Assembly: GCF_044704955.1 (NCBI RefSeq)
Contig: NC_091991.1
Coordinates: 5,146,001-5,210,000, forward strand
Origin: Pristiophorus japonicus
Taxonomy: Eukaryota
DNA: 64,000 nt
Reading direction: 5' to 3'
The notes under the pieces were generated by a model, which saw nothing but the letters and a program-made list of their open reading frames with translations, did not search any database and had not been told where the DNA came from. Shown here one piece after another: positions 17,449-64,000 of this stretch. A program made the translations under genes and the position numbers. Position 1 is the stretch's first letter, and every line of letters starts with the position of its first letter.

Positions 17449-17859
17449 TTCTCGTTGCTCAATCATTAACCTATATATAATTCATACATTTTGGTTGAAG
17501 GATAAATGTTGGTATGAATCCCTGATTTCCTTCACTCCATCATTGGTGGCTGTGCCTTCAGCGGCCCAGGCCCTTAACATTGCAATTCTCTCTGCCTCTC
17601 ACTCCTCCTTTGACTCTACTTAAAACCTATCTCTTTGACTCACTTTATGTGGCTCGGTGTCAAACTTTGTCTGATAAACTTCTGTGAAGCGCCTTGGGAC
17701 ATTTGACCACGTTAAATGCACTATATAAATTCAAGTTCTTGTTGTTTCCCTCTCTGCCAATGCTGTCTGGCCTGCTGAGGGTATTCCAGCATTTTCTGTT
17801 TTTTAAAAAAATGAAACCTTCACTAACAGACTTTTGAAAGTGGGGCAAGAGACGGGGGA

Positions 17860-18965: not shown

Positions 18966-19034
18966 CTGTGCAGGTCTCTGCCTGGCTGAATTCCTCTGGG
19001 CTTGTGTGCCGATGCCTTTAACTTCCAGGTCCAT
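18966..19034 (-). CDS. CAPS2: Calcyphosine-2, first coding exon (MDLEVKGIGTQAQRNSARQRPAQ); exon starts at 19042
   Basis: ttgcag acceptor at 19043-19044, ATG at 19034, CAG|gtaag donor. MDLEVKG matches the recalled human CAPS2 N-terminus, and CAPS2 neighbours the GLIPR1 cluster in human. Confidence 0.9.
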
Positions 19035-27202: not shown

Positions 27203-27495
27203 TCATTTCCCAAACTCATGCATTTTGTTGCGTCTTCTCAGCTCCATGGGTCCATGGGTTTCTGACAAATCTCCAAAGGCTTCATAATCCCCCTCGCTGT
27301 CCTCTGTGGAGATGCTGTACACAGACTCGGTCTCATCAAAAAATAATGTCGCAAACGGTTTACCAGTTATCGGATCAATATCCTCTAACGAATCTTCCTC
27401 ACTATCCGCAAAGATCCGATCTTCAGTCAGTTGTGTCTTTATCTCAATGTCCTGGACAAATTCTTCGAGATTCTCAGAGACAGGAACCAGTTCTT
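27203..27495 (-). CDS. RIC3/CCDC107-family protein, exon 6 (acidic tail ending MELRRRNKMHEFGK*)
   Basis: Pyrimidine-rich ctccag acceptor, phase 1, open frame to TGA at 27203-27205. The C-terminal LR[RK]R motif is typical of RIC3 and CCDC107. Confidence 0.88.
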
Positions 27496-27546
27496 CTGGA
27501 GTGGGGAGAAAAGGTTTAAATCACAATTCTAAACAGAAACTTTATA

Positions 27547-27878
27547 CAGGCAACTCCTGAATATCCGCACGCAGATGCAACGGGAAACGGCATTTAAAAT
27601 TCCGTCTGTCTCTCGCGGCCGCCGCTGACGTCGGAGTCCTTTCGGCCTGGGAAGGCAGCGCGCTTCGGAACCCCGGAGCTAGACAACCTCCTCCTCGAGA
27701 CCAACTGCATGCATGCTGGTAATGTCCATACGTAACTGCCTTGTTACTGTTTGTAGCTGATTGCACAGTATTTATTCATTGAAGTTTTAACTTTATAATG
27801 TCAACTCGCTCTAACGGAGAAATTGTTTACCCGGCATAGCCCAATCCCCAAGGGACCCGGATAATCGAGAGTTGCCTG
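27547..27878. mobile_element. Tc1/mariner (Tigger-like) MITE, 332 bp
   Basis: TA on both sides; TIRs CAGGCAACTCCTGAATATCCG and (reverse complement) CAGGCAACTCTCGATTATCCG. Confidence 0.85.
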
Positions 27879-28282
27879 TATTTTTAATTATATAAGACTA
27901 TATTTCACTGGTATGAAAGTACCACAGATTCATAAGATAAATCTGAAGTTTTTTATTAATATTCTTCCTAAATTTCTCCATTAATTCCTCAAGTAACCAT
28001 CTCTTTAAAAAAGGATATTTTAAGCTTTTTCATACAATAGGATCATTTAAAAATATCAGATTACCATTATGTTCTGGGAACAATAATAACTTGTATTTAT
28101 ATAGCGCCTTTAATGTAGTAAAACGTCCCAAGGTGCTTCACAGGAGCGATCAGACAAAATTTGGCACCGAGCATTCAAAATGGAGATCCTCCACAAGTAC
28201 AACTAAGATAGTGATGTACATCAATTTATCTTAATTGTTTTAAAACCTCAACACTTTATTGCATATACACCAATCATTTTAC

Positions 28283-28380
28283 CATCAAAATTCGGTTCCT
28301 GCCTCTCTTTCATCAGCTGCCTTATTTGCTGAAGCTGTGTCATAATTTCATTCTTCTGCTCAGAAGCGACGGCATCAACA
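28283..28380 (-). CDS. RIC3/CCDC107-family protein, exon 5 (CVDAVASEQKNEIMTQLQQIRQLMKERQEPNFD)
   Basis: gacag acceptor and gtaaaa donor; 98 nt, phase 2/1; coiled-coil pattern. Confidence 0.88.
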
Positions 28381-28554
28381 CTGTCGTGGATGTAAATCAA
28401 TAAGTAAGACTGAGCTGCTAAAGTTAAACAGGGTTAAAGGCATTAAATGGCACAGCAGTTCATCAATATACATAGGAAACGCGGTTGGGTCTTGCAAACT
28501 AAGCATCATATTGCATAATTTACAACTAATTGTGTAACCACTACACTGTTGTAC

Positions 28555-29010
28555 AGTTTTTCCCCAGACTGATTCCTGGGATGGGGGGATTGTCCTATGA
28601 GGAGAGTTTGAACAGACTGGGCCTATATTCACTAGAGTTTAGAAGAATGAGAGGTGATCTCATTGAAACATATAAAATTCTTATAGGGCTCGACAGGGTA
28701 GATGCAGGGAGGATGTTTCCCCTGGCTGGAGAGTCCAGAACCAGAGGTCATAGTCTCAGGATAAAGGGGTCGGCCATTTAGGACTGAGATGAGGAGAAAC
28801 TTCTTCTCTAAAAGGGTGGTGAATCTCTGGAATTCTCTTCCCCAGAGGGCTGTGGAGGCTCAGTCGTTGGATATATTCAAGACAGAGATAGATAGATTTT
28901 TGAATATTAAGGGAATCAAGGGATATGGGGATCGGGCGGGAAAGTGGAGTTGAGGTCGAAGATCAGCCGTGATCTTACTGAATGGCGGAGCAGGCTCGAG
29001 GGGCTGAATT
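28555..29010 (+). mobile_element. CR1 3' fragment
   Basis: ORF 28530..28781 carries LGLYSLEFRRMRGDLIETYKIL. Confidence 0.85.
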
Positions 29011-29699
29011 ATTGTAATCATAAGAGCTGCTAGGAATTTAAAAAAATATATTTATTCGTGGGATATGGGCGTCGCTGGCAAGACTAGCATTTATTGCCCA
29101 TCCCTCAAGGGGCACTACTTCAAGTATTTCATTCTTTTAAAAAAAGATCAAAACAGTTGGACCCTTGGTTGGCATAAGTCAATACTTCACGGTGAACAAG
29201 TTCCACTCCTGACAGCAACATATTTTTGTTTCCAATGCTTTTTCTTTTGTTTAAACAAAGTTCCGTAACTGTGTTATATATTGTGAATGTAAACCCTGCA
29301 ATTTAACATGTTTTAGCAAAAGTTAATCATAAAAAAGAAACATTCATAGACAACTCCTGAAAAACTTAGTGCGAGATAAGAACATCAAGTAATCGTGGGT
29401 AATTCAAAGATCAATTTAGGGGAGAGCTGCTTGCCACAATACTGCTGTGTTGGGATCTCAACTAAAGACATCAAAACTCTACCTCAACTGAGCTTAGCCC
29501 TGGATGGAGAGGGGAGGCTTTGTTACTTTGGCCAAGCCAATTTTTGATAACTAGCAGGTCAACTGTGAAATTTCACTCTCGACATTCCTTTCCTTCCTCT
29601 CTCAATGGACGTGGAGCAACTGTGAAAGAGAGTCCCAGTCTTTAGTAACTTTACCCAACTTAGTTCCACAAGAGACCCCAGTGTGCTGCCACTCACCCC

Positions 29700-29955
29700 C
29701 ACCCATCCAACTCTTGTGCTTCTCTCCACACCTTCTCCAAAACTTGTGTCTCTCTCCCCCTGCTCATCCCAACTCTTGTATCCCTCACCCCTGCTCATCT
29801 CAACTCGTGTCTTTCTCCCCCCGCTTATCCCAACTCGCGTCTCTCTCGCCCTGCTCATCCCAATTCGTGTCTCTCTCGCCCTGCTCATCCCAACTCTTGT
29901 GTCCCTCTCTCCTCCCTGCACATCTCAACTCTTGTGTCTCTCTCCCCTTGCTCGG
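29700..29955. repeat. ~30-bp pyrimidine-rich minisatellite, about 8 units
   Basis: CTGCTCATCCCAACTCTTGTGTCTCTCTCCC-like unit repeated. Confidence 0.8.
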
Positions 29956-30637
29956 GTGCCGATGAGTAGACCGTTGAAGAGGCAGGACATATTGCAGAGA
30001 TGGAACTAGGCAGTCTTGGCGATTGACTGCTAATGGAATTTGTAGCTCAGCTTAGGGACAAACAGCACGCTAAGTTTACGCATTGTCAAGTGCAGCCTGA
30101 ACACGCAACCAGGAAGGAGGGGTGGAATCAGGGCCTGGAATGTGGAGGTTATGGTGAGAACCAAACCAGATAGTTTTGGTCTAGCCAAAGTTTAATTGGT
30201 GCAAAGTTCTAGCTCATCAACAATTTGACATTAGCATGGCAATGATCAAAGTCAAGGGTGATGGCAGAGAGCTTGGTGTCATTGTCTATGTATAGAAGCT
30301 GACTCCGTGCTCATGGATGATGTCTTCAGCAGGCAGTGTGTACAAGACGAAAGGGAAAGGAGCCAAGGATTGAACCTTGGGATACACTGGAGGTGGACAC
30401 AAGGGGAGGGCACTGCAGGAGGTCAGGAAGGTAGGAATGGAAACTGAGAGGGAACCTTGAAAGCAGATGCCAAGGAGCTGAATCACAGAGGAGAAACAAT
30501 GGAGGATAGAAGTCACCGAGAGGTCGAGGTGCGATAATGCGCTGGTTAGAAAATGAGGAAGTTCAACAAAATCAAACCAATATTTAGGGTGAGAAACAGA
30601 ACAAAAAATCCTCAGCGGAACAGCAACGATCACTTAC

Positions 30638-30728
30638 CAGTTGGTGAGAGGATCCAACTCTTTTACTAATGAGTCCAGCATTCTCTCCGTCTGTGCCAAA
30701 CGCATCTCCAGTTCAGAAAGCTGATTTT
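30638..30728 (-). CDS. RIC3/CCDC107-family protein, exon 4 (ENQLSELEMRLAQTERMLDSLVKELDPLTN)
   Basis: tactag acceptor and gtaagt donor; 91 nt, phase 1/2. Aligns by eye with recalled human CCDC107 EQQLAQLTQQLAQTEQHLNNLMAQLDPL. Confidence 0.9.
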
Positions 30729-31548
30729 CTAGTACAAAAGTTTCTTAAGTTACTAAAAAATTAACTAGAGCTGCTTGCAGTCCAAGTATTATTATGCAGT
30801 GGTCACCCTTAACTCAGCTGGTGGCACTCTCGCCATTTGAATCAGGTCATGGGTTCAAGCCCCATTCCAGAGACTTGAGTGCATAATCTAGGCTGACACT
30901 TCAGTGCAGTTCCTGTACTGAGAGATTTCCATTCCCCCTCCCAAAAAACCTTCTTTAAATTCATTCCCGGGATGTGGACGTCACTGGCAAGGCCGGCATT
31001 TATTGCCCATCTCTAGTTTACCTCGAGAAGGTGGTGGTGAGCCGCCTTCTTGAACCGCTGCAGTCTGTGTGGTGAAGGTGCTCCCACAGTGCCGTTAGGA
31101 AGGGAGTTCCAGGATTGTGACCCAGCCACGACGGAGGGACGGTCGACATATTTCCAAATCGGGACTGTGTGTGACTGGGAGGGGAACGTGGGAGGTGATG
31201 CCGCTCTCATGCACCTGCTGCCCTTATCAGGTACAACCTTTCTAGATTCTGCCCAATAGTTAACGTATGGCATGCCTCTTCTGGTGCAGACTGGTTAATA
31301 AATAATAAATAATTACTCACAATTAAGATGAGCGATGCAGAATCCAAGCAGTTTAGCTAATCAACATCACACATGCAGGGGAGGAAAGAACATGCCCACC
31401 AACACAGACAGCTGAGTAACTTGGGTCACCGGTACTGAGTAACACAGATTTCAGTCAAATCAAAGCTGTGCACCAAACTGCGCCAGATTTCACTGCAAAA
31501 ATGTGGCAAATAATAATTACCTGCGCGATTAGCTTAAAAAGTGTATAC

Positions 31549-31621
31549 CTGTATTTTTCCTCTTATTGTCAACCTCCTTATTTTTCTCATTGCTTAATTT
31601 TTCATTTTCATTGAATTTTGT
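31549..31621 (-). CDS. RIC3/CCDC107-family protein, exon 3 (TKFNENEKLSNEKNKEVDNKRKNT)
   Basis: ttttcag acceptor and gtatac donor; 73 nt, phase 0/1. Confidence 0.85.
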
Positions 31622-32395
31622 CTGAAAAGGCAGACAAGATATTTCAAACAATGATAGGAATTACAGTTAGCACGATAAAACCCTTACAAAAACTGCAAGC
31701 TATTTTTCCTGCAATTACTATTTACATGTCACTGGCTCAGTGGGCAGCACGCTCGCCTCCGAGTCAGACGGTTGTGGGTTCAAGTCCCACTCCAGAGACT
31801 TGAGCACAAAATTCCAGGCCGACACCGCAGGGTAGTACTGATGGAGTGCTGCACTGACGGAGATGCTGAATTTCAGATGAGATGCTAAAACCGAGGCCTC
31901 GTCTGCTCTCTCAAGACGGACGTAAAAGATCCCATGGCACTATTTCGAAGAAGAGCAGGGGAGTTATCCCTGATAATATTTGTCCAACAATCAACATCAC
32001 AAAGAAACAGATTATCCTGGTCATTATCACATTACAACAGTGATTACACTTCAAAAAGTACTTCATTGGCTGTAACCTGCTTTGGGATGTCCTGAGGTCA
32101 TGAAAGACGCGATATAAATGCAAATGCAAATTTTATAAAATCCTTACAGAAACTGCAAGCTATTTTTCTTCCTTTAGGACGGCTAGATCGTTGATTTTTA
32201 GCAGTAAATTCTAGACTGGATCCTCTGTAAAATGGAAACAGGCTGCCCAGGATCAGAGCACATATTCTTGGCATCGCTTTTTCAGATGAGACTTTAAAGT
32301 AAGACTCGTTCAGGTGGACGTTAAAGCTCCCATGGCGCCACTTGAAGACGAGCAGGGGAGCAGTTAGCGCTCAATTAAGACCACCAAAACAGATC

Positions 32396-33099
32396 GGGCC
32401 TAAAATTGCGGTCAGAGGCTTCCTTCGTACAAACGCCCCCGACCCGAACAAAATCTACGAATCTATACCTGTTGGTCCCGGAGAAACGCAGGATCCCGGT
32501 CGGAGGCCTAGATTCGCTGCGCACCACAGGGGGCCTGTCTTTGAGGTACGTACGTCCAAGCTGGAGTCACGTGAGCCTGGACAACCAATCACATTGATGA
32601 TAATGGGAAGTCCGTTTGTGCAAGTTCCCATTGCTATCAATGAGAAAACCCCTTAAAGCACTCAAACACAACATAATAAATAAGTAAAACACCTCGCATA
32701 TTTAAAATTAATTGCAATTAAAGTTAATTAAATGTTTAAAAAAAAATTGGAAGGAATTTTTTTAAATATGTTTTAAAACGGTTTAAAATAAACTTACCTT
32801 AATGGACAGGGTTTTTAAACATAAAAATGTGTTTTTAAATTTAATTTTCATATGTTTTAAAACTCTTACACTGGTAAAAGTAAGCTATGTGCCTGCTTTC
32901 ACCAGGCGTAAGAGTTTGAAGCACAATTTCACCCACGCAGATGTACTTCTCCCGGGGATGCGTTTGTTGTGACAAGACAAATCTAGACAGATCGGAAAAG
33001 CCGGTTTTCAGCGCATGCGCATCGCGCCCAGAAAACCCGCTTTTGCGTGGCCTCTGTGAGCACTCCGTACCGACCTGGTGAGGACGGAATTTTAGCCCC
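32396..33099. mobile_element. Non-autonomous TIR DNA transposon inserted into a DeuSINE
   Basis: Termini GGGCCTAAAATTGCGGTC and GACGGAATTTTAGCCCC, similar to those of 17860-18834. SINE sequence is present on both sides. Confidence 0.65.
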
Positions 33100-33551
33100 G
33101 TTAATTGATCATTTATCTCACTGCTGTCTGTGGGACCTTGCTGTGCACAATTTGGCATCGTTGCTTGCTTACAAACGTCTACACTTCAAAAAGTAATTCA
33201 CTGGCTGTAGGGCACTTTGGAAAGTTCCGTGGATGTGAAAGGTACTATATAAATGCAGGTTCCTTCCTTATTTTGGTGCTGTGGCTTACCCTACTTAAAT
33301 AAAGTTACGTTCCACGTCCAGCACTGGGGATAAAACAGGCAATCCGATGGGGGTAATGCTGCCAGGAAAACTTGCTGCTTCAAAGGATTTTGGCTTTTGA
33401 AATTATTCTGTGGGATAAGAGGTACAAATGCTGAACGTGATTTCTTTCTACACTATTTCAGCAGAGGCTTTAACCTATTATGGGACAATGCCTCCAATTA
33501 AATAAAGGGCAGAGGAATCTCAGATGGAGACATTAAGCCTTTTTGCTTGCT

Positions 33552-33875
33552 GGGGTAATGTAGTGGTTACGTTACAGGATTAGTCATCATCCGAGGCCTG
33601 GACTAATAATCCAGAGAGCATGAGTTCAAATCCCACTATGTCAGTTTGAGAATTTGAATTCAGTTCTTTAAAAAAAAAAAATCTGGAAATAAAAAGCTGG
33701 TATCAGTAAAAGTGAAGCTGTCAGATTGTCGTAAAACCCAACTGGTTCACTAATGTCCCTCGGGGAAGGAATCCTGCCATCCTTACCCAGTCTGGCCTAT
33801 ATGTGACTCCAGTCCCACACCAACATGGATGAGTAACTGCCCTCTGAAAGTGGCCTAGCAAGCCCCTCAGTTGAA
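33552..33875 (+). mobile_element. Second tRNA-derived SINE family (fragments also at ~3425-3625 and ~16745-16935)
   Basis: B-box GAGTTCAAATCCC; body CTGGTTCACTAATGTCC...GGAAGGAA...GTGACTCCAG. Confidence 0.65.
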
Positions 33876-35432
33876 TCAATCCACTACAACAAAGTGTCCC
33901 ACCACCGTTTGCTCAGGGCAGGATCGTTCCAAGACTGAGATCGTTAAGATTTTTTGTTCGGTAAGGGTATCGAGGGAGCAAAGGCAGGGAGATGGAGTTG
34001 AGGTGCAGATCAGCCATGATGGTGGAGCAGGCAAGAGGGGCTGAATGGCCTGCTCCTGCTCCAAACCAAGGATGGTGAATAAATGTGACGACCACGTCCT
34101 GACAGTGAATTAAATAAAATGTACAAGATGTTGCAGCAGAGTCCTGAGCAAGTGGCATTTGATTGTAGCTTGGAATGTGATGTAGTGCAGCGGATGGGAG
34201 ACAGGATCGCTAGTTGGCACACCACAATGCTCTTAGAGAATCTCTTCTGTACCATCTCCATGACCTACACATCCTTACTAAAGTAGGGTGCCCAACAGAC
34301 ATAGTATTCTAATTGTAACCTAACTAATGATTGTCATCATCATCATAGGCAGTCCCTCGGAATCGAGGAAGACTTGCTTCCACTCTTAAAGCGAGTCCTT
34401 AGGTGGCTGAACAGTCCAATACGAGAACCACAGTCCCTGTCACAGGTGGGGCAGATAGTCGTTGAGGGAAGGGGTGGGTGGGACTGGTTTGCCGCACGCT
34501 CCTTCCGCTGCCTGCGCTTGGTTTCTGCATGCTCTCGGCGATGAGATTGAATCTACAAGTTTGGCATTACCACTTTGCTTTTGTACTCTATGCCTCTTAA
34601 TATAAAGCCTAGGATTCCACATGCTTTAATCAACCTATCTTCCTACTCTTAATGATTTGTGTATCTGAACAACAACTTGTATTTATATAGCACCTTTAAT
34701 GTAGTAAAACATCCCAAGGCGCTTCACAGGAGAGTTATAAAACAAAATGTTATATGTAGCCACTGTTGTACTGTCGGAATATATTGAGATCAATGATTTT
34801 AACATTGTCCCCATCACTATTTACATTCTTCCAGTCCAAACCACATCCAACAGCCGATGTTCCCGCTAAGCTGCGTGCTCGGCCGTGTGGTCATTGTAAG
34901 ATCCCACGCAGGCCGCTCACCAGCTCGTCCATTGTAAATACCGCGCAGAACTTTAAAGGGACTGTGCAGAGCAAAGCACAACGTACAGGGAACATTGGCA
35001 ATATCCGCTAGCCTCTGGTTAGCCAAATTTCCATCCATTCTGCCACATATTGTACATTATACATTTAGTTGTGAAATTGTAAATACTACACAGGTATTGA
35101 CAAATAACAAATATGTTTTGTTACACTGGAAAAGAACTATCACAGACAAAAAACCCCAAAAACTTCTATACACATGGATCATGGACCAACACAGTACAAA
35201 GAGCGAGTCCCTTCCAGTTTTATTTGCATTATTGTCACCTTGCCCGGTGAGAAAACATTAGAAAATCAGGAAATGTAAACACTTTGACAATTCAGTGGCA
35301 ACGGTGAGCAGCATTTACAAGCATTCTTCGTTACAGTATTATGTTACTAACAGATACCCACAAAATATTTGCGGTCAAATTAGTATCTTTATTGCAACAG
35401 TACTTGTTTAGATATCATTCTTTTCGTCTATA

Positions 35433-36059
35433 GAATCAATAATGATGTCCTCCCTCCCTCCTCCTCCTTCGCTCCCTCTCCCCCTCCCATCCACTCACTC
35501 TCTCCCTCCCTCTGTCCTTCTCTCTCCCTCCCTCTGTCCATCTCTCTCCCTCCCTCTGTCCATCTCTCTCCCTCCCTCTGTCCATCTCTCTCCCTCCCTC
35601 TGTCCATCTCTCTCCCTCCCTCTGTCCATCTCTCTCCCTCCCCCTCCCACCCACCCTCTCCCTCCATCCATCTCTCTCCCTCCATCCCACCCACCCATTC
35701 GCTCCCTCCCTCCATCCGTCTCTCTCCCTCCCCCTCCCACTCTCTTCCTCCGTCCGTCTCTCTCCCTCCCACCCACTCTCTCCCTCCCCCTCCCACCCAC
35801 CCTCTCTCCCCGTCCCACTCACTCACTCTCTTCCTCCCTCCCTCCCCCTTCCACTCTCTTCTTCCTTCTCTCTCACCCACCACTCCCGCCACGTGCTCCT
35901 CTCGGCTCCGCAGCAATGCCCGGGGAGGATCCAACCCCCCCTGCCTGCACCCACTAGGTGGGAGAGGGAGGGAGAGAGATGGAGGGAGGGGGAGAGGGAG
36001 AGAAGGAGGGGGGGGGGAAAGTGAGAGAGAGGAGGGAGGGAGGACATCATTATTGATTC
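35433..36059. repeat. Low-complexity CT/GA tract bounded by a perfect 31-bp inverted repeat
   Basis: GAATCAATAATGATGTCCTCCCTCCCTCCTC (35433-35463) and its exact reverse complement at 36029-36059. Confidence 0.85.
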
Positions 36060-36315
36060 GCATCCACTGCCACCTCCTCATTGGAGCAGACTCAGCGCCA
36101 CTAAAACTTTTAAAATTCGCGCCATCACTCCCTGCCCTGATTGGTTGCGGGGCTGGGCAGGCCCTGATCACCCATTGGTCAGTGCAACTGTCCCTCAGTC
36201 CGGACCACGTGCTCCCGCAACGCCTCCCCCCCCCCCCGCCCCCCCGCCTCAGGACAGACAAAAACTGACCTTTATTATTATAGATTTATAAAGTGCACTA
36301 CAGTGATGGGCTTAC

Positions 36316-36524
36316 CTGCACGAGTTTGTAAACTGCATATACACCTATGCCGATCGCATAAAGTGGCATTAATTGGAAAGCAAATCCTTTGGTTCTGCTC
36401 TGGGCCTTCTCACTGTTCATATCTTTTTGATTTACACTTCTCATCTGCTGCATCCTGAGATTAGGTGCTCCTTTGGGACCATCTGATTGAGAGTGTGTGT
36501 TTAATGGCTGCCCTCTTCCAGGAC
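36316..36524 (-). CDS. RIC3/CCDC107-family protein, exon 2 (includes TM segment GFAFQLMPLYAIGIGVYAVYKLVQ)
   Basis: ttacag acceptor and gtaagc donor; 209 nt, phase 1/0. The TM resembles recalled RIC3 GLMGQIIPIYGFGIFLYILYILFK. Confidence 0.92.
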
Positions 36525-36994
36525 CTGTAATACGAATCAAATGAAGAGATTCCAAACAAAAATAGCCATTCAACATGACATGACATTCCATATATCCGGT
36601 AATACCATGCACTGAAAGAGTCAACTGCGGCCATACAAAATGCAATATATAAAAGCACATAAATATAAAAAGGTAGACAGAATTTCAGCCACTGTTAAAA
36701 TGACTGTGCATCAAAAGTAAGAAGAAACTACAGAAGCTGAGGCTCTTTTCTTTAGACCAAAGAAGTTTGAGATCTGATAGAGGTGTTATAGATTATGAGA
36801 GGTTTTGATCGAGTAAATCAGGAAAAGAACTATTCCCACTGGCCAGTGAGTTGGTAACTAGAGGGCGTAAATTTACGATCGTTGCTAAATGAAAAAGGGA
36901 GAGGTTGGGAACATTATTTAGCTTTTTAAACACAGAGGCTGTCAGCAATGTTCCTTTTAAGCTGCGCGACCGAGCAGCACTCTGAAGGTCCTGG

Positions 36995-37805
36995 GCAGCC
37001 GTTGAACTCCAAATCATCATCGACATCTTCACCGAGGCGTACGAAAGCACGGGCCTTACACTAAACATCCGTAAGACAAAGGTCCTCTACCCACCTGACC
37101 TCGCCACACAGCACTGCCCCCCAGTCATCAAGATCCACGGCGCAGCCCTGGACAACGTGGACCACTTTCCATACCTCGGGAGCCTATTATCAGCGAGGGC
37201 AGATATCGACGACGAGGTTCAACACTGCCTCCAGCTGCCTGAGGAAAAGAGTGTTCGAAGACCAGGCCCTCAAATCTGCCACCTAGCTCATGGTCTACAA
37301 GGCTGTAGTGATACCCGCCCTCCTGTATGGCTCAGAGACATGGACTATATACAGTAGACACCTCACATCGCTGGAGAAATACCACCAACGATGTCCCCGC
37401 AAGATCCTGCAAATCCACTGGGAGGACGGACGCACCAATGTCAGTGTCCTCATTCAGGCCCAACATCCCCAGCATCGAAGCACTGACTACACTCGACCAG
37501 CTCCGTTGGGCAGGCCACAGTGTTCGCATGCCCAACACGAGACTCCTAAAGCAAGCGCTCTACTCGGAACTCCTACATGGCAAGCGAGCCCCAGATGGGC
37601 AGAGGAAACATTTTAAAGACACCCTCAAAGCCTCGCTGATAAAATGCAACATCCCCACCGACACCTGGGAGTCCCTGGCCAAAGACTGCCCTAAGTGGAG
37701 GAAGAGCATCCGGGAGGGTGCTGAGCACCTCGAGTCTCGTTACCGAGAGCATGCAGAAATCAAGCGCAGGCAGAAGGAGGAGCATGCGGCAAACCAGTCC
37801 CACCC
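36995..37805 (+). mobile_element. RTE-clade LINE 3' part
   Basis: DHFPYLGSLLS, VYKAVVIPALLYGSETW, LRWAGH and KDTLKASL motifs. Confidence 0.88.
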
Positions 37806-38227
37806 ACTAGTGTGGGAAATGCGGCAACCAATTTGAGCACAGCAAGCTTCCACAATCAGCAATGTGACAATGACCAGAAAATCTCTTTTGCTTTGTTGAT
37901 TGAGGGATAAATATTGGCCAGGACACCGGGGATAACTCTCTTGCCTCTTTTTCGAAATAGTGCCATGTGGTCTTTTCCGTCCACCAGAGATCAGACGTCT
38001 AATATTAATGTTTAACGTCTCATCCAAAAGACAGCACCCGCAACAGTGCAGCACTCCCTCAGCACTGCACTGGAGTGTTAACATAGATTTTTGTGCTCAA
38101 GTTCTTGGAGTGGGGCTTGAACACACAACCTTCTGACTCAGAGGCGAGTGTGCTGCCCCTGAGCCCGGCCTAGCTCCAAGCCAGAGACTCTTGTCCCAAA
38201 TCCTGGGGAGGGTGTCATTTGCATGGT

Positions 38228-39382
38228 CATAGAAACATAGAAAATAGGTGCAGGAGTAGGCCATTCCGCCCTTCAAGCCTGCACCACCATTCAATAAGGT
38301 CATGGCTGATCATTCCCTCAGTATCCCTTTCCTGCTTTCTCTCCATACCTCTTGATCCCCTTTGCCATAAGGACTATTTCTAACTCCCTCTTGAATATAT
38401 CCAATGAACTGGCATCAACAACTCTCTGCGGCAGGGAATTCCACAGGTTAACAACTCTGAGTGAAGAAGTTTTTCCTCATCTCAGTCCTAAATGGCCTAC
38501 CCCTTATCCTTAGACTGTGTCCCCTGGTTCTGGACTTCCCCAACATCAGGAACATTCTACCTGCATCTAACCTGTCCCGTCCCGTCAGAATCTTATATGT
38601 TTCTATGAGATCCCCTCATATCCTTCTAAACTCCAGTGCATAAAGGCCCAGTTGATCCAGTCTCTCCTCATATATCAGTCCGACCATCCCTGGAATCAGT
38701 CTGGTGAACCTTCGCTGCACTAACTCAATAGCAAGAACGTCCTTCCTCAGATTAGGAGACCAAAACTGAACACAATATTCCAGGTGAGGCCTCACCAAGG
38801 CCCTGTACAACTGCAGTAAGACCTCCCTGCTCCTGTACTCAAAGCTCCCCTAGCTATGAAGGCCAACATGCCATTTGCCTTCTTCACCGCCTGCTATACC
38901 TGTATACCAACTTTCAATGACTGATGTACCATGACACTCAGGTCTCGTTGCACCTTCCCTTTTCCTAATCTGCCGCCATTCAGATAATATTCTGTCTTTG
39001 CGTTTTTGCCCCCAAAGTGGATAACCTCACATTTATCCACATTATACTGCATCTGCCATGCATTTGCCCACTCACCTAACCTGTCCAAGTCACCCTGCAG
39101 CCTCATAGCATCCCCCTCACAGCTCACACCGCCACCCAGTTTAGTGTCATCTGCAAACTTGGAGATATTACACTCAATTCCGTCATCCATTGATGTATAT
39201 TTTAAATAGTGGGGGTCCCAGCACTGAGCCCTGCGGCACTCCACTAGTCACTGCCTGCCATTCTGAAAAGGACCCATTTATCCCGACTCTCTGCTTCCTG
39301 TCTGCCAACCAGTTCCCTATCCACGTCAGTATATTACCCCCAATACCATGTGCTTTGATTTTGCACACCAGTCTCTTGTGTG
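38228..39382 (-). mobile_element. CR1 LINE 3' part
   Basis: ORFs 38616..38810, 38894..39244 and 39183..39368 ([19 protein letters not shown]); TTCTATG tail. Confidence 0.9.
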
Positions 39383-39775
39383 GTCAGAGCGGATACATCA
39401 CACCTTCAAAGATACATCAGTGGTACCCCTCTGGGATCCATTAATTTCCTGTTGCAAGGGCTTGGTGCCTTCATAGGATTTATGCCAGGTCTCAGCTGAC
39501 ATGAGTTCCAGTGTAGCCTACAAAGGGCAAAAATGGAATCCAGGAACTCCTCCAGACGCGCATCCTTCACGTAAGGGGATAGGCGAATGGAAGATCTGCC
39601 CACGGCCACCTCTTTCTGAATTTAAAGGGCCAGTCTAAACAGGGTAGAAAACTGATGGAACCCAAATTCCTGGACACCCCGAGGCGGCCCTGTCCAAACC
39701 CAGGAATCTGGGCTTGTGATTCTAAATCTAATCAAACTACATTAGTACCTAACTCGCAAAAGTCATCAATATCTC

Positions 39776-41059
39776 TGTAATCAATGCCCCTGTGACTATG
39801 CTCACAGGTTTGTAGAGCTGTTGATCCGAACTGATCCCCATCCGGACGGAATTCCTCATCGGCGCCAAACCCCGGAACCTCCCTCGGGAGCCGGCGCCTC
39901 ACAACTTGAGCCGCCTCGGGGAAATCCCCTCCGTGCCTTTCAGTTTTGCGCAGAGGAGTTTCCTGTACGGGCTGCTCCTGCACATTCTCAACCTTGCCAT
40001 CCTCGTCTGCCGTCCGGACACGCCATGGCGTACCATCTTGCCGTCCGGAGGAGGCGGGGATCCCCGATAGAGCGCACTCTACGCGGGAGTCCTCCCACTA
40101 TTTATTGGGTCTTGGCCTGGAGGGTGGTGCATGGAGCAGTCCCGTGCAACAAATGTTTAAGCCGGTTCAAGGGTTCCCAGGCCGTCTGCAATTTCTGCGG
40201 TCTGGAGGAGTCCGTGTTCCATGTTTTTATTGAATGCACGAGGTTGCAGCCCCTGTTCAACTATGTAAAGGGGCTGCTCCTGAAATTTTGGCTGCACTTC
40301 AGTCCCAAACTCCTGATCTTTGGGCACCCTGTGCGGAGGGGAGCGGGTAGGTCCGAAGGCCTCCTTGTAGGACTGCTCCTGGGCACGGCCAAGGGGGCCA
40401 TCAGCCGGTCCAGGCAGCGGGCGGTCGAGGGGGTCATTCAGCCCGACTGCCTGCCTCTCTTCCGGCCCACATCCGGGCCAGGGTGTCCTTAGAGATGGAG
40501 CACGCGGTGTCCACCGGTACGCTCGCGGCCTTCCGCGAGAGGTGGGCGTCGGAGGGACTGGAGTGCAACCAAATTTTAATTTGATTTTATGTTTTAAAGT
40601 TTAATTTGTTTTAATTGCCGGTTTTAGTGTCCCCCTCCCCTTTTATAGGGGGCACTTGTAAAAGAATTTATGATTTTAATGCCCCCAATTTTTTTTTTTA
40701 AAAACACAAAAAACCCCCCCAAAAAAACAACAAAAAAAAGGGCAGTTGAAAAGTGTCTGGAGTGTCCCCCAGATTGGGGAGCACTTGAACTAATGTTATT
40801 TTGTGTCTCCAAAAGAGTTGTAGAGCTGTTGAGTTGGAAGTGGTTTAGCCAGTCATGTGATGTTCACAAGACTCAATAAAACCCCAGCCAGTTTGGGGTT
40901 TTGGGGATCCACGATGGGGCAGGTGGTTGTGAACCCTGGTGGATGAACTGGTAATGTGTTGTGTGATTGTTAAACCTTTGCTAATAAACCAACTAGTTCT
41001 TAATAGAAATGTGTTGCTAGGAGTTCTCAAGCAAAGAACCATGAAGCAAATACATTACA
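39776..41059 (+). mobile_element. Probable solo LTR split by the Tx1-like insertion
   Basis: Termini TGTAAT...ATTACA with internal AATAAA; about 280 bp once the insertion is removed. TSD is imperfect. Confidence 0.55.
39825..40817 (+). mobile_element. L1/Tx1-clade LINE 3' part (zf-RVT region)
   Basis: ORF 39821..40492 carries WRVVHGAVPCN...CNFCGLEESVFHVFIEC. 15-bp TSD TTGTAGAGCTGTTGA at 39810-39824 and 40818-40832. Confidence 0.88.
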
Positions 41060-41879
41060 ATCCACAATTGCAACTTACAATGATGTGTGATGGTAAATGT
41101 TGTGGGAATATGTTTTTAAAAATCGCATCAGGAATTAAGCCTACAATTTTCTTGGCAAATTTATTTGAATTAACTTTTCACTCACCAAGCACAGGTACTT
41201 GAACTTTAGCCAGAAGAAATGAAGCCTAAAAAAAGGAATAAAATGCACCTTTGGTATAGAAAAGGAGCTGGTCAGTGCAGCAAGGACAAGCCAATAACAG
41301 GCTACTACAAAAAGCAGGTGTAGCAAGAAAGCAGAGAAAGCAACTACATTGGATCTGCACTTGTTATCTCAGTGAAGCTACCTGTAAACTAGTGAATTGC
41401 CGTTTTTCACCACTGCAGCAGGAGACTAGTCACCACTGGTTAGTTACCAGGAAACCTACATACATCATGTTTAGTCTCTTAGCTCAGGGGAGCAATGATG
41501 CAGGCTGTACCTCAGAGAAAATATCACTTACTATTGCATTATTAATGCATTAGGCCGTTAGAACATAAACACCTAATCTGTCTGCCTTGGCGCAGTGGTA
41601 GCTCTCTCATCCAAGTCGAAAGGTTGTGGGTTCAAGTCCCACTCCAGAGACTTGAGCACACAATCGCGAGTGACACTCCAGTGCAGTGCTGAGGGAGTGC
41701 TGCACTGTTTGAGGAGCCGTCTGTCAGGTGAGACGTTAAACCGAGGCCCCGTCTGCTTCCTCAGGTGGACATAAAAGATCCCATGGCACTATTTCAAAGA
41801 GGAGCGGGGAGTTATATCATCTCCTTACCCTGGCCTTACAGCTGGTCAGTCCGTACACCCCACCTGATCCTGGTCGCCC

Positions 41880-42789
41880 ACACCCACGCAGTCAGTGCCC
41901 GTACATCCCCGCTCTAGGCCTGTAGCCCTTGGTCAGTGCCGGTACACCCCCGGGGTCAGTGCCCGTACACCCCCAGTCAGTGTCTGTAGCCCCCCCGGTC
42001 AGTGTCTGTAGCCCCCGGTCAGTGCCCGTACATCCCCGGGGTCAATGCCCGTACATCCCCCGGTCAGTGCCCGTACACCCCCCCGGTCAGTGCCCGTACA
42101 CACCCGGGGTCAGTGCCCGTACACACCCGGGGTCAGTGCCCGTACACCCCCCCGGTCAGTGCCCGTACACACCTGGGGTCAGTGGCCGTACACCCCCCGG
42201 TCAGTGCCCGTACACACCTGGGGTCAGTGGCCGTACCCCCGGACAGTCTCTGTAGCCCCCCGGTCAGTGCCCGTACACACCCGGGGTCAGTGCCCGTACA
42301 CCCCCCCGGTTAGTGCCCGTACACCCCCCGGTCAGTGCCCGTACCCCCTCCGGGGTCAGTGGCCGTACCCCCGGACAGTCTCTGTAGCCCCCCGGTCAGT
42401 GGCTGTACCCCCGGACATTGGCCGTACCCCCGGGGTCAGTGGCTGTACCCCCGGACATTGGCCGTAACCCCGGGGTCAGTGGCCGTACCCCCGGACATTG
42501 GCCGTAACCCCGGGGTCAGTGGCCGTACCCCCGGACATTGGCCGTAACCCCGGGGTCAGTGGCCGTACCCCCGGACAGTGTCTGTAGCCCCCCGGTCAGT
42601 GGCTGTACCCCCGGACATTGGCCGTACCCCCCGGTCAGTGGCTGTACCCCCGGACATTGGCCGTAACCCCGGGGTCAGTGGCCGTACCCCCGGACAGTGT
42701 CTGTAGCCCCCCAGTCAGTGGCCGTACCCCCGGGGTCAGTGGCCGTACCCTCGGACAGTGTCTGTAGCCCCCCCGGTCAGTGGCCGTAC
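41880..42789. repeat. ~20-bp minisatellite starting at the first base of intron 1 of the RIC3/CCDC107-like gene
   Basis: Units GGTCAGTGGCCGTACCCCC, GGTCAGTGCCCGTACACCCC, GGACATTGGCCGTAACCCC and GGACAGTGTCTGTAGCCCC. Confidence 0.95.
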
Positions 42790-42925
42790 CTGAGGGCCGA
42801 TGATGACCCGCTGCCGGCGCCGCGACCTGCTTCCCTCCGCCCGGCCCCAGTAACATCCGCGGAATCACCACAAACACACAAATAAACAGGCCCAGGGCCA
42901 GCGCCGTCTGCTGAGCCATCGCCAT
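42790..42925 (-). CDS. RIC3/CCDC107-family protein, exon 1 (MAMAQQTALALGLFICVFVVIPRMLLG...HHRPS)
   Basis: Strong Kozak GCCATGG, hydrophobic signal/anchor like the RIC3 N-terminus, TCAG|gtacgg donor; 136 nt, phase 1. The six exons total 900 nt (299 aa plus stop). Confidence 0.9.
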
Positions 42926-42939
42926 GGCAGCGGTAGGCC

Positions 42940-43375
42940 CGGCCCCGCCCCGCCCGGAGTCCAGGCTCCGCCCATAGACCAGGCCCCGCCCACAGCCCCG
43001 GAGCCCAGGCTCCGCCCATAGTCCAGGCCCCGCCCACAGCCCCGGAGCCCAGGCTCCGCCCATAGTCCAGGCCCCGCCCACAGCCCCGGAGCCCAGGCTC
43101 CGCCCATAGTCCAGGCCCCGCCCACAGCCCCGGAGCCCAGGCTCCGCCCATAGTCCAGGCCCCGCCCACAGCCCCGGAGTCCAGGCCCCGCCCACAGCCC
43201 CGGAGCCCGGAGTCCAGGCCCCGCCCACAGCCCCGGAGCCCAGGCTCCGCCCATAGCCCCGGCCCCGCCCACAGCCCCGGAGCCCAGGCCCCGCCCACAG
43301 CCCCGGAGCCCAGGCTCCGCCCACAGCCCCGGCCCCGCCCACAGCCCCGGAGTCCGGGCCCCGCCCACCGCCCGG
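42940..43375 (-). promoter_or_regulatory. Promoter-proximal tandem array (44-bp unit) of GC boxes
   Basis: Unit GGAGCCCAGGCTCCGCCCATAGTCCAGGCCCCGCCCACAGCCCC; about 20 GGGCGG (Sp/KLF) motifs directly upstream of the ATG. Confidence 0.75.
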
Positions 43376-43741
43376 GCCACAATGAGCGGAGCACAGAGAT
43401 GTCTCTCACTGTGGGGCTGTGGGAGGTTACAGAGACAGGGAGAGGTGAAGCTATGGAGGGATTTGGAAAACAAGGATGAGAATTTTAAAATGAAGGTGTT
43501 GCCGAACCAAGAGCCAATGTATGTCAGCGATTTGACATGCAAAATTCTAAAAATCATAAACAACTTGAATGTATTCTCAATATTGCCATGTGATGCAAAT
43601 CTGTATTATGAATTACATCTGCCTCACCTCTATATTTATCTCCAAAATGTTGTCGATAAATTGGATTGCCCTTGAGATAGAGGCCAATAAACATAAATGC
43701 ATGAACCAAGATGGGAAATGCAGAATACACAAACTGAATGT

Positions 43742-46700: not shown

Positions 46701-47306
46701 ATTAAGACACAAAGCCTTTAGGCTTGTTTTTTTAACAACCTCACATTTATCCACATTATACTTCATCTGCCATGCATTTGCCCACTCACCTAACCTATCC
46801 AAGTCACTCTGCAGCCTCATAGCATCCTCCTCGCAGCTCACACTGTCACCCAACTTAGTGTCATCCACAAATTTGGAGATACTACATTTAATCCCCTCGT
46901 CTAAATCATTAATGTACAGTGTAAACAGCTGGGGCCCCAGCACAGAACCTTGCGGTACCCCACTAGTCACTGCCTGCCATTCTGAAAAGTCCCCATTTAC
47001 TCCTATTCTTTGCTTCCTGTCTGACAACCAGTTCTCAGATAGCCACGGTTGAGCCACTTTCCCTTTTTTGTTTTTACACCAGACAGGAATGTACAATTGT
47101 TGTAGTTCATCCATGCGGTCTCTAAATGTCTGCCATTGCCCATCCACAGTCAACCCCTTCAGTATCATTCGCCAATCTATCCTAGCCAATTCACGCCTCA
47201 TACCTTCAAAGTTACCCTTCTTTAAGTTCTGGACCATGGTCTCTGAATTAACTGTTTCATTCTCCATCCTAATGCAGAATTCCACCATATTATGGTCACT
47301 CTTCCC
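43742..47306 (-). mobile_element. Young CR1 LINE with intact endonuclease + RT frame, chimeric 5' end and duplicated 3' tail
   Basis: ORF 43914..47288 (1124 aa) carries [49 protein letters not shown] and FADD with no stops. The tail unit is repeated at 43742-43822 and 43823-43897. Confidence 0.95.
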
Positions 47307-48079
47307 ATTGAAGTGTTTAAAAGTAACTAAAATGCACCATTTTCAATGCAAAAATGCAGAATTTTCCAGGCTCCGCTAAAATGTAGCACAAGTTGATGCA
47401 CACATTGTTGGACATATTTGGAAGGAGCATCCATATTTCAAAATGTAATTTCTGGGTTATGACTAAGGGTCATGACCTGAAACGTTAACCCTGTTTCTCT
47501 CTCCACAGATGCTGCCTGACCTGCTGAGTATTTCCAGCATTTTCTGTTTTTATTTCAGATTTCCAGCATCCGCAGTATTTTGCTTGTGTGAACTAGATGG
47601 GCTTTGGTCTCTTTCCCAAAGAGAACAGATGAGATAACGTTTTGGACGTGGCTCTTTCGTCAAAACTGTTTTCACACATGGGTAATTGTTTTCCAGCAGG
47701 TTTCTTCTCGATCTGTGAGCTTTTTGCTGAAGCTGTTTTTCCAACTTTTGCTAGCTTTCCAGTTTGGCAGATATATATATATATATATATTTTTTAGGGT
47801 TAGGGTTATAACCAGTGGGAGTATTCCCCAGCTTGGCACCTCCAGCTCATTTGGAGTGAGTGAAGGTGCTTTAGCACAGGTAGTCCTATAAACATCTAGA
47901 TATTGGTTCTTGGTTGTACGCACAGTGGAAGATTAAGCAATTATTAACACCAGTTACCTGTTTTTTTTTCATCTGAAAATTAGAAGGAAGTGCCCCGCCA
48001 GCATTTCATTTTGTACGTGGCTATCTTGCAATTAGTTTTCGCAACTGAACCTGCACCATATTTGGGCGTGAAATCGGTA

Positions 48080-48117: not shown

Positions 48118-48303
48118 ATGGGTGTCCGAATGGGGAGACGGCTGTGCGCCAGTGTTTCACTTAACGTGTGTTTTTATTTGGCTATTTTTGGTGTCGAGGC
48201 AGCAATTGACATTGATAATAAAGATTTTATCAAGGAATGCATCCAGCGCCACAATTTCTATCGTTCGCAAGTCAATCCTCCCGCCAGCAACATGCTGTAT
48301 ATG
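48118..48303 (+). CDS. GLIPR1: GLIPR1-like CAP/SCP-domain protein, coding exon 1
   Basis: Signal-like segment followed by DIDNKDFIKECIQRHNFYRSQVNPPASNMLYM, then gtatgg; 186 nt, phase 0. Confidence 0.9.
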
Positions 48304-63264: not shown

Positions 63265-63510
63265 TCCTGGGATCGGATTCTTGCTAAAGCAGCCCTGGAA
63301 TGGAGCAAGAACTGTGTTTTCAAACACAATACCGACCTGAAAGTGCACGGAAAACTTCATCCAGTATTCACCTCTGTTGGAGAAAACATCTATGTCACAT
63401 CTGGTTCCACTTTAAATGTCAGTCGTGCAATAACAAACTGGTATAACGAAGTTATTCACTATGATTATGCTTCACAAAGGTGCACAAAAGTATGTGGACA
63501 TTACACCCAG
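63265..63510 (+). CDS. GLIPR1: GLIPR1-like CAP/SCP-domain protein, coding exon 2
   Basis: ttctag acceptor and gtaatc donor; 246 nt, phase 0/0. Reads SWDRILAKAALEWSKNCVFKHN...LHPVFTSVGENIY...WYNEV..YDY...CTKVCGHYTQ (CAP signature). Confidence 0.93.
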
Positions 63511-64000
63511 GTAATCTATTTGTACAAATAATTTAATTGATCAAAATAACAGCATTATCCTACAACTGTTTGCAGTTTCTTAGCAATAAATAATTTAGCC
63601 ATATGACCTGCAGTTCTTTCAAAATTCAGTTGCATAAACCATGTATAAGCTGTATGCCAATGGTGCCTCCAACACCATTCACTGAAGTGTTAGTTGCGCA
63701 GACTGCTTTTCCCTCCACTAGTGAAGAAATGGTGATTGGAGTTGCTGACATTTCTACTTTTGTTTGGTCTGACCAAAGGAGAGATACCAAATGTTGGGAG
63801 GAATTAGGCACAAGGTTGAATATAGACAGTAGAAAATTTAGCAACTTTTGTATTCAGTGTAAAAAGTCTGTTTTTGAAATAGCTGCTTTTGTAATTAACA
63901 AAGCAATCTATCCTCTTTCTTCGCACTCTCCTTTACAGTTCTGCATCCCCAGAAATGAACGTAATGTGTTTTCCAGCTAAATTATAAGTCGCAAGAACAT

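Follow-up and report, generated by a model that had tools for sequence, protein, structure and literature searches.

A sawshark gene of the RIC3 family beside a GLIPR1-like gene is probably orthologous, one-to-one, to mammalian CCDC107

Introduction

RIC-3 is an endoplasmic reticulum (ER) chaperone that serves alpha7 nicotinic and 5-HT3 receptors. In the relevant reports, its second transmembrane segment (TM2) is described as required, and also sufficient, for its action, and the protein as functional across species despite low sequence identity (PMC3549563), and the minimal unit acting on alpha7 is given as a transmembrane segment plus the coiled coil (PMC9318448). For mouse Ccdc107, one report gives Sit1, Rmrp, E130 and Car9 as neighbours, expression in fibroblasts, and a knock-down without effect on viability (PMC3198473). 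In the literature searched, CCDC107 appeared in gene-list and neighbour contexts only, with nothing on the evolution or function of the family, a single paper among some 8.4 million mentioned it together with RIC3, and the teleost name ch73-278m9.1 had 0 occurrences in the literature listed. The human gene lies at 9p13.

Here we describe a gene in a 64-kb stretch of the Pristiophorus japonicus genome (the window). The initial annotation, made from the sequence alone, had placed an intact gene of the RIC3/CCDC107 type between CAPS2 and GLIPR1, and had proposed that it was either a third paralog lost in mammals or CCDC107 at its ancestral position.

Results

Gene model and transcript contigs

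The coding sequence occupies six exons on the minus strand, whose 900 nt specify 299 amino acids and a stop codon with 0 internal stops, and all five introns are of the GT-AG type. Exon 1 (42925-42790, phase 1) carries the start codon, a first hydrophobic segment (signal or signal-anchor) and a Gly/Pro-rich linker; alone it gave a weak match to Pfam RIC3 (E=0.31), and its residues 9-46 were 100% identical to the database protein P0001. Exon 2 (36524-36316, phase 0) continues the linker and adds a short helix and the second hydrophobic segment with a PxYxxG motif (TM at 36375). This exon alone scored 52 bits on Pfam RIC3 (E=1e-13) and retrieved 8 shark homologs in the database search. A charged linker is encoded by exon 3 (31621-31549, phase 1), followed by the first coiled-coil segment in exon 4 (30728-30638, phase 2; coiled coil at 30699), which bears the LAQTE...LDPL signature common with mammalian CCDC107, matched Pfam RIC3 at E=2e-4, and had both of its joints present in contigs. 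The second coiled-coil segment, a helix in the AlphaFold2 model, lies in exon 5 (28380-28283, phase 1). The coding part of exon 6 (27495-27203) specifies an acidic, likely disordered tail, the LRRR motif (27241) and the stop. Splicing into this exon can use an acceptor at 27495 or another at 27492, 3 nt away, and the latter yields a 298-residue protein identical to P0001, filed in UniRef as 'CCDC107, Pristiophorus japonicus'.

Of the five introns, the compared stretch covered the three nearest the 3' end (27495/28283, 28380/30638 and 30728/31549), and these were joined in public contigs of three of four runs (X12-X14), which belong to one study and whose kind is not on record. None of the runs listed as carrying the sequence was recorded as RNA. 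The fourth run (X11), from another organism, contained the 30728/31549 joint, so that the joint between exons 3 and 4 was present in all four. Transcript contigs extended past the stop codon to at least 26883. The sawshark gene is real and spliced, with three introns supported by contigs, and chance assembly of exons was rejected. The six phase-compatible exons and 299-residue product of the initial annotation were thus borne out by translation, by the contig joints, and by the identity of the 298-residue form with P0001.

Membership in the RIC3 family

The whole protein matched Pfam RIC3 (PF15361) with 111.1 bits against a cut-off of 28.9, over residues 15-162 and 144 of the 146 profile positions. 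Hydropathy and AlphaFold2 modelling agreed on the architecture of the family, with two N-terminal hydrophobic segments, a coiled coil and a disordered acidic tail. Hydropathy peaked at residues ~8-26 and ~92-115, and aspartate and glutamate made up 29% of the last 100 residues. Every feature listed in the initial annotation, from the N-terminal hydrophobic segment to LRRR, was located. The AlphaFold2 model contained helices at 2-25 and 91-196, mostly as one long helix with no global fold (pTM 0.24), and pLDDT was under 50 in tail residues 233-288. A sequence search of the PDB returned three coiled-coil-type matches only (E 0.12-0.15). Leads from the ESM Atlas were a CCDC107 cluster (0.91, possibly the protein's own), RIC-3 (0.84) and FAM209 (0.76).

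The gene is already catalogued, since RefSeq and UniRef call it CCDC107 in the sawshark and in many non-mammals. Among 50 matches in a homolog search, 26 were named CCDC107 and 2 were named RIC-3. Those two names, together with the Pfam score of 111 bits, would suit a shark ortholog of RIC3 itself. In a tree of 53 rows and 275 columns, however, the CCDC107 proteins of mammals, sauropsids, amphibians, fishes and sharks formed one clade (support 95/97) as against the RIC3 and cyclostome rows, and an approximately unbiased (AU) test rejected the placement of sharks with RIC3 (p=1.8e-6). Over the rows compared, the shark protein was 19-25% identical to RIC3 and 37-47% to bony-vertebrate CCDC107, and lungfish and bichir each have both a RIC3 and a CCDC107 of shark type. 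We therefore rejected RIC3 orthology, which we regard as vanishingly improbable. Mammalian CCDC107 could not be moved to RIC3 either (AU, p=1e-5). The split between CCDC107 and RIC3 recurred in a free tree without nematodes, and support for the CCDC107 clade fell to 69/51 when nematodes were included and only conserved columns were used. Row P0063, whose coiled-coil exon is mis-modelled, was left out of later trees and of the identity and motif comparisons, and nematode rows were left out of later AU tests and of the 138-column identity comparison. The labels 'hagfish' (P0134) and 'NEM' (P0128, P0158, P0172 and P0186) are guesses from sequence.

The initial annotation had also described a RIC3-like transmembrane segment joined to a CCDC107-like coiled coil. 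A mosaic of the two genes was rejected. Among tree rows the motif was present in 17/17 non-mammalian CCDC107, 8/8 RIC3, 3/3 cyclostome and 3/3 nematode-type proteins, and in 0/7 mammalian ones; in wider lists it was found in 48 of 50 shark-type matches as against none of 120 mammalian matches (the best 120 of 227). Of the coiled-coil signature, LAQTE and LDPL occurred in 116/120 and 118/120 mammalian matches, respectively (again the best 120 of 227), and an LDPL-type motif in 49/50 shark-type matches, with none in the 8 RIC3 rows. Over the coiled coil of exon 4, mammals were 55.6% identical to non-mammals and 24.4% to RIC3. The RIC3-like segment is not a mosaic feature but the ancestral motif of the family, which non-mammals retain and which has eroded in mammals.

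Position of mammalian CCDC107

Non-mammalian CCDC107 proteins scored 104-139 bits on Pfam RIC3, whereas the three mammalian ones tested fell under the cut-off (human 26.5 bits, platypus 17.4 bits, opossum no match), and the shark and human proteins were only 22.7% identical over conserved columns. Both observations lend some weight to the third paralog, by which the sawshark gene would descend from its own duplication in the vertebrate RIC3 family and have disappeared from mammals, and mammalian CCDC107 would stem from another old duplication whose product other lineages lost. AU tests were partly lenient toward it: the unconstrained third-paralog tree gave p=0.196 and p=0.152, and its pairwise comparison with the amniote tree gave p=0.12 (LG) and 0.057 (JTT). 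In a five-tree test, on the other hand, the species-tree version with a paralog older than sharks was rejected under three models (p=0.027, 0.029 and 0.034), while three versions of orthology were kept (p=0.07-0.23).

In the trees, mammalian CCDC107 nested inside the group formed by the non-mammalian proteins. Free trees placed it beside coelacanth and not with sauropsids, on a long stem branch (1.07-1.37) of odd composition; under a mixture model, holding mammals with sauropsids improved on the lnL of the free search by 2.07. Identity followed the species tree, which speaks against the third paralog. Over 138 columns, mammals shared 34.4% identity with sauropsids as against 26.6% with sharks, a difference of 8.1 points (95% interval 3.5-12.8), whereas RIC3 leaned the opposite way (-3.7). 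By this measure the mammalian protein is nearer to the bird and turtle gene than to the shark gene, and platypus CCDC107 was visibly intermediate.

Distribution among vertebrates

Orthologs of the sawshark gene were found in sharks, rays, a chimaera, bony fishes, amphibians, turtles and birds. Mammals were 0 of the 48 matches with known organism in a shark-type search (50 matches), whereas in a mammal-type search all 118 with an organism were mammals, among the best 120 of 227 matches. Proteins of the mammalian and non-mammalian types thus have a complementary distribution among the matches listed. When 141 new representatives were classified, the mammal profile gave the highest score, and a positive one, for 9; five of these carry names and are mammals, and the other four look eutherian. 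Neither among these 141 nor among the matches listed was a mammal-type CCDC107 seen in a non-mammal, although a second non-mammalian CCDC107 could lie beyond the best 120 of 227 and the best 150 of 198 matches. Among the group matches listed, none bore the name of a lizard, snake or crocodilian, although some fragments without a name may come from these animals. Metagenome scans for DNA of relatives confirmed 0/387 and 0/65 pattern matches.

The third paralog requires independent losses of the 'true' CCDC107 in sharks, ray-finned fishes, lungfish, amphibians and sauropsids, in addition to one loss in mammals, and the absence of mammal-type proteins from non-mammals among the matches listed does not favour it. 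With AU values spanning 0.03 to 0.20, mammals nested within the group, and a complementary distribution, we consider that proposal of the initial annotation unlikely. One-to-one orthology, with mammals at their species-tree place, is favoured by the mixture-model, five-tree and identity comparisons, while the paralog tree survived the unconstrained and pairwise AU tests. Orthology was the outcome that the annotation had set against its own proposal, and it largely prevailed, for a gene that databases already name CCDC107.

Genomic neighbourhood

A GLIPR1-like gene lies head-to-head with CCDC107 in the window. Its likely first exon (48118..48303, plus strand) is an open reading frame with an ATG and a GT donor; it had no Pfam match and contains what we take to be an HNxxR motif of the CAP type. 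A CAP-domain exon follows at 63265..63513 (plus strand), with a Pfam CAP score of 20.5 bits (E=9e-4), just below the cut-off of 21.1, and it is 43.5% identical (E=4e-15) to the CAP region of P0061, a frog model named GLIPR1. On the other side, a candidate first coding exon of CAPS2 (18966..19034, minus strand; ATG, GTAAG donor) gave no Pfam match, and a candidate internal exon of 46 nt (11668..11713, minus strand) is open and bounded by AG and GTAAG. Both presumably resemble the CAPS2 N-terminus. Of the location first proposed, the GLIPR1 side is backed by similarity, and CAPS2 is a candidate for the other side.

Beyond the shark, evidence on synteny consists of one fused frog model and record sizes. 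In the Pelodytes model P0061, a CCDC107-type protein is fused with a CAP domain similar to that of the GLIPR1-like exon of the window, which implies a same-strand order of the two genes as against the head-to-head order in the shark. CCDC107 of quail, guineafowl, ptarmigan and hummingbird lies on records of 176-197 Mb, which we take to be the size of bird chromosome 1 and not of Z. An Rfam search of the 64-kb window gave no match to RNase MRP RNA, and the neighbours there are the GLIPR1-like gene and candidate CAPS2 exons in place of the mammalian SIT1, RMRP, ARHGEF39 and CA9, which we read as a move in mammals; 2 of the mammalian matches (best 120 of 227) were named carbonic anhydrase 9 isoforms. 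A differing neighbourhood would also suit a third paralog. The link to GLIPR1 in the frog, set against the place of mouse Ccdc107 by Rmrp and Car9, suggests that the gene moved in early mammals. Trees, frog link and differing mouse site together support the ancestral position, the other proposal of the initial annotation.

Discussion

We conclude, with a probability of about 0.75, that the sawshark gene belongs to the CCDC107 group within the RIC3 family, that its relation to mammalian CCDC107 is likely one-to-one orthology, and that its place by GLIPR1 is likely the ancestral one. An early vertebrate duplication would have given rise to RIC3 and CCDC107, and CCDC107 would have remained beside GLIPR1 in sharks, in a frog and, probably, in birds. 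On the mammal stem it would then have moved to the SIT1-RMRP-CA9 region, retaining one intron position or more. There its sequence would have changed rapidly, and PxYxxG would have disappeared from the second membrane segment. Taken as a whole, this scenario seems to us strongly probable. In the openly available literature searched, we found no account of a move in the mammal stem or of PxYxxG being kept by non-mammals only.

By analogy with RIC-3, we predict that CCDC107 resides in the ER membrane and aids the assembly of multi-subunit membrane receptors. Its first hydrophobic segment would target it to the ER, the second would bind, within the membrane, unassembled subunits of pentameric ligand-gated channels (nicotinic or 5-HT3 type), the coiled coil on the cytosolic side would gather the bound subunits, and the acidic tail would be a dispensable disordered extension. 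We put this mechanism forward tentatively, at rather less than even chances. The same ortholog may instead have another job: having diverged from RIC3 after the duplication, it could act in the ER membrane as a general adaptor or chaperone whose clients are not Cys-loop receptors, and we rate this just short of even. TM2 and the coiled coil are conserved within the CCDC107 group (72.8% and 75.6%) yet only 26.5% and 22.2% identical to those of RIC3, and vertebrate RIC3 TM2 is itself 90.6% conserved; clients may therefore differ. The fibroblast expression of the mouse gene does not point to a neuronal role, and its reported dispensability for viability agrees with such a job. Against it, TM2 of CCDC107 is as near to the nematode-type RIC-3 rows as vertebrate RIC3 TM2 is (42.6% and 30.5% identity; BLOSUM means 2.34 and 2.39), and RIC-3 itself, in the account cited above, tolerates low identity.

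A bolder form of the RIC-3-like role is possible, though we hold it doubtful: sharks, bony fishes, amphibians, turtles and birds may have a second functional chaperone of the RIC-3 type for nicotinic or 5-HT3 receptors, its gene so far mistaken for an orphan with a coiled coil, and this activity would have been lost in mammals with the move beside RMRP and the loss of PxYxxG. If true, it would be a hidden assembly factor in receptor work on fish, chick and Xenopus oocytes, and would supply an ancestral function for human CCDC107. No functional assay of any CCDC107 on receptors was found in the literature searched. Because PxYxxG is kept only outside mammals, shark, frog or chicken CCDC107 would be better than the human protein for a chaperone assay, and a positive result would matter for nicotinic receptor expression in Xenopus oocytes and for studies in zebrafish and chick. 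As a gene, with protein, name and Pfam family already catalogued, it offers a modest evolutionary and functional lead and not a new kind of system.

Comparison with known systems

A second cyclostome gene of the RIC3 family (Lampetra P0127 type) has CCDC107-like LAETE and LEPL motifs together with a RIC3-like TM2, and groups on the RIC3 side (97/89 and 97/96). In one lamprey model this gene is fused to INSC. RIC3 itself has the same succession of a hydrophobic segment, a Gly/Pro linker, a PxYxxG transmembrane segment, a coiled coil and an acidic disordered tail; CCDC107 differs in forming a separate clade with the low core identity given above, in its shorter tail, and in that its chaperone role is only predicted. 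Mammalian CCDC107 has in common with the sawshark protein the LAQTE...LDPL signature, two hydrophobic segments and an LRRR-like end (7/7 rows), and two mammalian fragments end at the phase-2 position of the shark exon 4 donor, which suggests a common intron. It differs in its neighbours, its shorter luminal linker, the loss of PxYxxG, its long stem branch, and, in the three proteins tested, a Pfam RIC3 score at or below the cut-off. CCDC107 of other non-mammalian jawed vertebrates (si:ch73-278m9.1 in teleosts) is the same gene as that of the sawshark: it has the same intron positions, seen in read-through fragments, and differs only in that the linker and the acidic tail have diverged between lineages.

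A six-exon CCDC107 gene of the RIC3 family

The gene between candidate CAPS2 exons and a GLIPR1-like gene occupies positions 27203..42925 on the minus strand. Five exons (42925-42790, 36524-36316, 31621-31549, 30728-30638 and 28380-28283) precede a sixth coding exon that ends in the stop (27495-27203), and all five introns are GT-AG, with phases 1, 0, 1, 2 and 1, giving a product of 299 aa plus stop. Over the stretch compared, which covered introns 3 to 5, contigs of three of four runs, all from one study, joined these introns exactly, and those of the fourth run joined intron 3. Exon 6 has tandem acceptors three bases apart (27492/27495), yielding 298- or 299-aa forms; the contigs show the 27495 joint, and the 298-aa form from 27492 is identical to the database protein P0001, listed in UniRef as 'coiled-coil domain-containing protein 107 isoform X2, Pristiophorus japonicus'. 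Among the 120 mammal CCDC107 matches listed, 27 carry a comparable one-residue variant after the TM. Pfam RIC3 was matched by three separate exons in the correct order, and P0001 scored 111 bits, where the cut-off is 28.9. The initial annotation was therefore right that an intact RIC3/CCDC107-family gene lies here, and databases (RefSeq, UniRef, Pfam) already list it under this name and in this family. In the openly accessible article text covered, we found no literature on CCDC107 family evolution, a mammalian move or receptor chaperoning.

Minisatellites flank exon 1: a 20-23-bp array begins at its donor (41891-42789), and a 44-bp GC-rich array lies directly upstream of the start codon (42937-43378). 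Another, with 80 copies of a 32-bp unit, lies within 19414-22038.

On the plus strand, a GLIPR1-like gene has a CAP-domain exon at about 63265-63513 (Pfam CAP E=9e-4, slightly below cut-off) and a likely first exon, without a Pfam match, at 48118-48303, which places its start head-to-head with that of CCDC107, 5.2 kb away. Between the two starts, a 1142-aa open frame (43914-47342, minus strand) presumably belongs to a CR1-type LINE, having endonuclease and reverse-transcriptase motifs. The first GLIPR1-like intron holds frameshifted retrotransposon remains (about 58100-62030, plus strand), which we take to be a Gypsy-like LTR element with gag, protease, RT and integrase-like pieces. Beyond the 3' end of CCDC107, two small candidate exons on the minus strand (19034-18966 and 11713-11668) resemble the start of CAPS2, a putative identity that none of the tools run confirmed. 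Two full-length 5S rRNA copies (4247-4365 and 17292-17410, minus strand; 102 and 104 bits) lie within introns of the CAPS2-like gene or past them, each in a similar flanking segment present twice (about 3270-4400 and 16590-17450); they may be scattered 5S units or belong to a mobile element that carries 5S. Human is not known to have such a gene between CAPS2 and GLIPR1, as the initial annotation stated; this agrees with the sheep order KCNC2, CAPS2, GLIPR1L1, KRR1 (PMC12334768) and with a human list near KCNC2 of CAPS2, GLIPR1 genes and KRR1, lacking CCDC107 (PMC5022012), in the parts of these sources consulted, neither list claiming completeness.

The shark gene is probably orthologous to mammalian CCDC107

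A full-length search returned 50 proteins from sharks, rays, chimaera, sturgeons, paddlefish, teleosts (including si:ch73-278m9.1), caecilians, turtles and one bird. CCDC107 was the name of 26 and RIC-3 of two; the organism was known for 48, and no mammal was among them. A profile search gave 198 representatives, the best 150 of which were looked at. Name look-ups added CCDC107 in bichir, lungfish, coelacanth, newt, frogs and galliform birds, separate RIC3 proteins in lungfish, bichir, frog, snake, teleosts and birds, mammalian CCDC107 in platypus, marsupials and placentals, and two genes in lamprey. The mammalian CCDC107 profile gave 227 matches. An organism was given for 118 of the 120 listed, in each case a mammal. 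The two types are thus distributed complementarily among the matches listed.

Mammalian CCDC107 joined the shark protein and its relatives outside mammals in a single clade of a 53-row tree (95/97); mammals sat within the bony vertebrates, and the RIC3 and cyclostome rows fell outside the clade. When the analysis was restricted to 38 rows and core columns, the nematode root lay in an unresolved fork and support for the clade was 69/51. Without the nematode rows, forced grouping with RIC3 was rejected for sharks (p=1.8e-6) and for mammalian CCDC107 (p=1e-5). On the same rows, constraining mammals with sauropsids cost 0.85 lnL, and a non-mammalian clade excluding mammals cost 9.7 lnL (p=0.15). 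A mixture model preferred the mammal-sauropsid tree to the free search by 2.07 lnL and scored the exclusive non-mammalian clade 4.6 lnL worse (p=0.196).

The initial annotation had offered either a third paralog lost in mammals or the ancestral CCDC107 position. When the species tree was imposed and five trees were compared, all three models used rejected a paralog older than sharks (p=0.027-0.034); set alone against the amniote tree, this reading gave p=0.12 and 0.057. Two features count against orthology: mammals have a long stem branch of odd composition, and trees searched freely set them beside coelacanth. Over 138 columns, identity to mammal CCDC107 fell from sauropsids (34.4%) through amphibians (32.6%) and ray-fins (29.2%) to sharks (26.6%), a gradient that RIC3 lacks (difference of differences 11.9 points, 95% interval 4.7-19.4); this model-free result agrees with the phylogenetic tests, and platypus CCDC107 appears intermediate by eye. 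The protein stands apart from RIC3, and we favour its orthology to mammalian CCDC107 over a third paralog, with a probability of about 0.8 from these sequence comparisons.

Genomic position and a probable move in mammals

The Pelodytes ibericus model P0061, named GLIPR1, is CCDC107 fused to a CAP domain with a 43.5% match to the CAP exon of the window. It is likely a chimeric model, an annotation error that is useful as synteny evidence, since it places CCDC107 and GLIPR1 side by side in a frog too; the fusion implies same-strand order, not the head-to-head arrangement of the shark. Bird CCDC107 copies lie on records of 176-197 Mb, a size that points to chromosome 1, which carries the human 12q21 block, rather than to Z, which carries 9p13. 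In the part of the source consulted, mouse Ccdc107 neighbours Sit1, Rmrp, E130 and Car9 (PMC3198473). Two of the 120 mammal CCDC107 matches listed, P0251 (sea lion) and P0273 (sea otter), bear the name 'carbonic anhydrase 9 isoform', likely an annotation merge of neighbours. Rfam found no RNase MRP RNA in the 64-kb window.

Two mammal-type fragments end where non-mammal exon-4 read-throughs end. These protein fragments, as distinct from genomic DNA, suggest that both types may share a phase-2 intron, which in turn suggests that CCDC107 moved as DNA and not as a retrocopy.

The vertebrate genome duplications produced 11p15, home of RIC3, and 12q21 as sister blocks, which would explain the origin of the RIC3-CCDC107 pair. 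The Lampetra fluviatilis model P0198 fuses an Insc_C domain (300 bits) to a RIC3-family protein with CCDC107-like coil motifs and a RIC3-like TM, so this second lamprey gene adjoins INSC. Human INSC lies at 11p15, and the fusion fits the duplication origin.

A conserved transmembrane motif and a predicted function

The PxYxxG motif of TM2, the second hydrophobic segment, was present in all non-mammalian CCDC107 (17/17), RIC3 (8/8), cyclostome (3/3) and nematode-type (3/3) rows, the last two labels partly guessed from sequence, and in none of seven mammal rows; in the wider match lists it occurred in 48 of 50 non-mammal proteins versus 0 of 120 mammal proteins listed. Given the spread of the motif across the family, the RIC3-like TM and CCDC107-like coil noted initially mark no hybrid but the ancestral state of CCDC107.

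We propose shark CCDC107 as a predicted ER assembly helper, in which TM2 would bind client subunits and the coiled coil (exons 4-5) would gather them. RIC-3 is reported to bind the 5-HT3A intracellular domain (PMC12934730). Cys-loop receptors, the clients suggested initially, are possible for CCDC107 at somewhat below even odds, and other membrane proteins come close to an even chance. More tentatively, judging from sequence, non-mammals may have a second working RIC-3-type chaperone whose function mammals lost.

RIC-3, an ER protein of disputed topology, combines two hydrophobic segments with a coiled coil and a disordered tail (PMC10933150), a layout that shark CCDC107 shares by sequence and AlphaFold2. 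The TM2 of non-mammalian CCDC107 resembles the nematode-type rows as closely as the TM2 of vertebrate RIC3 does, but is only 26.5% identical to the latter.
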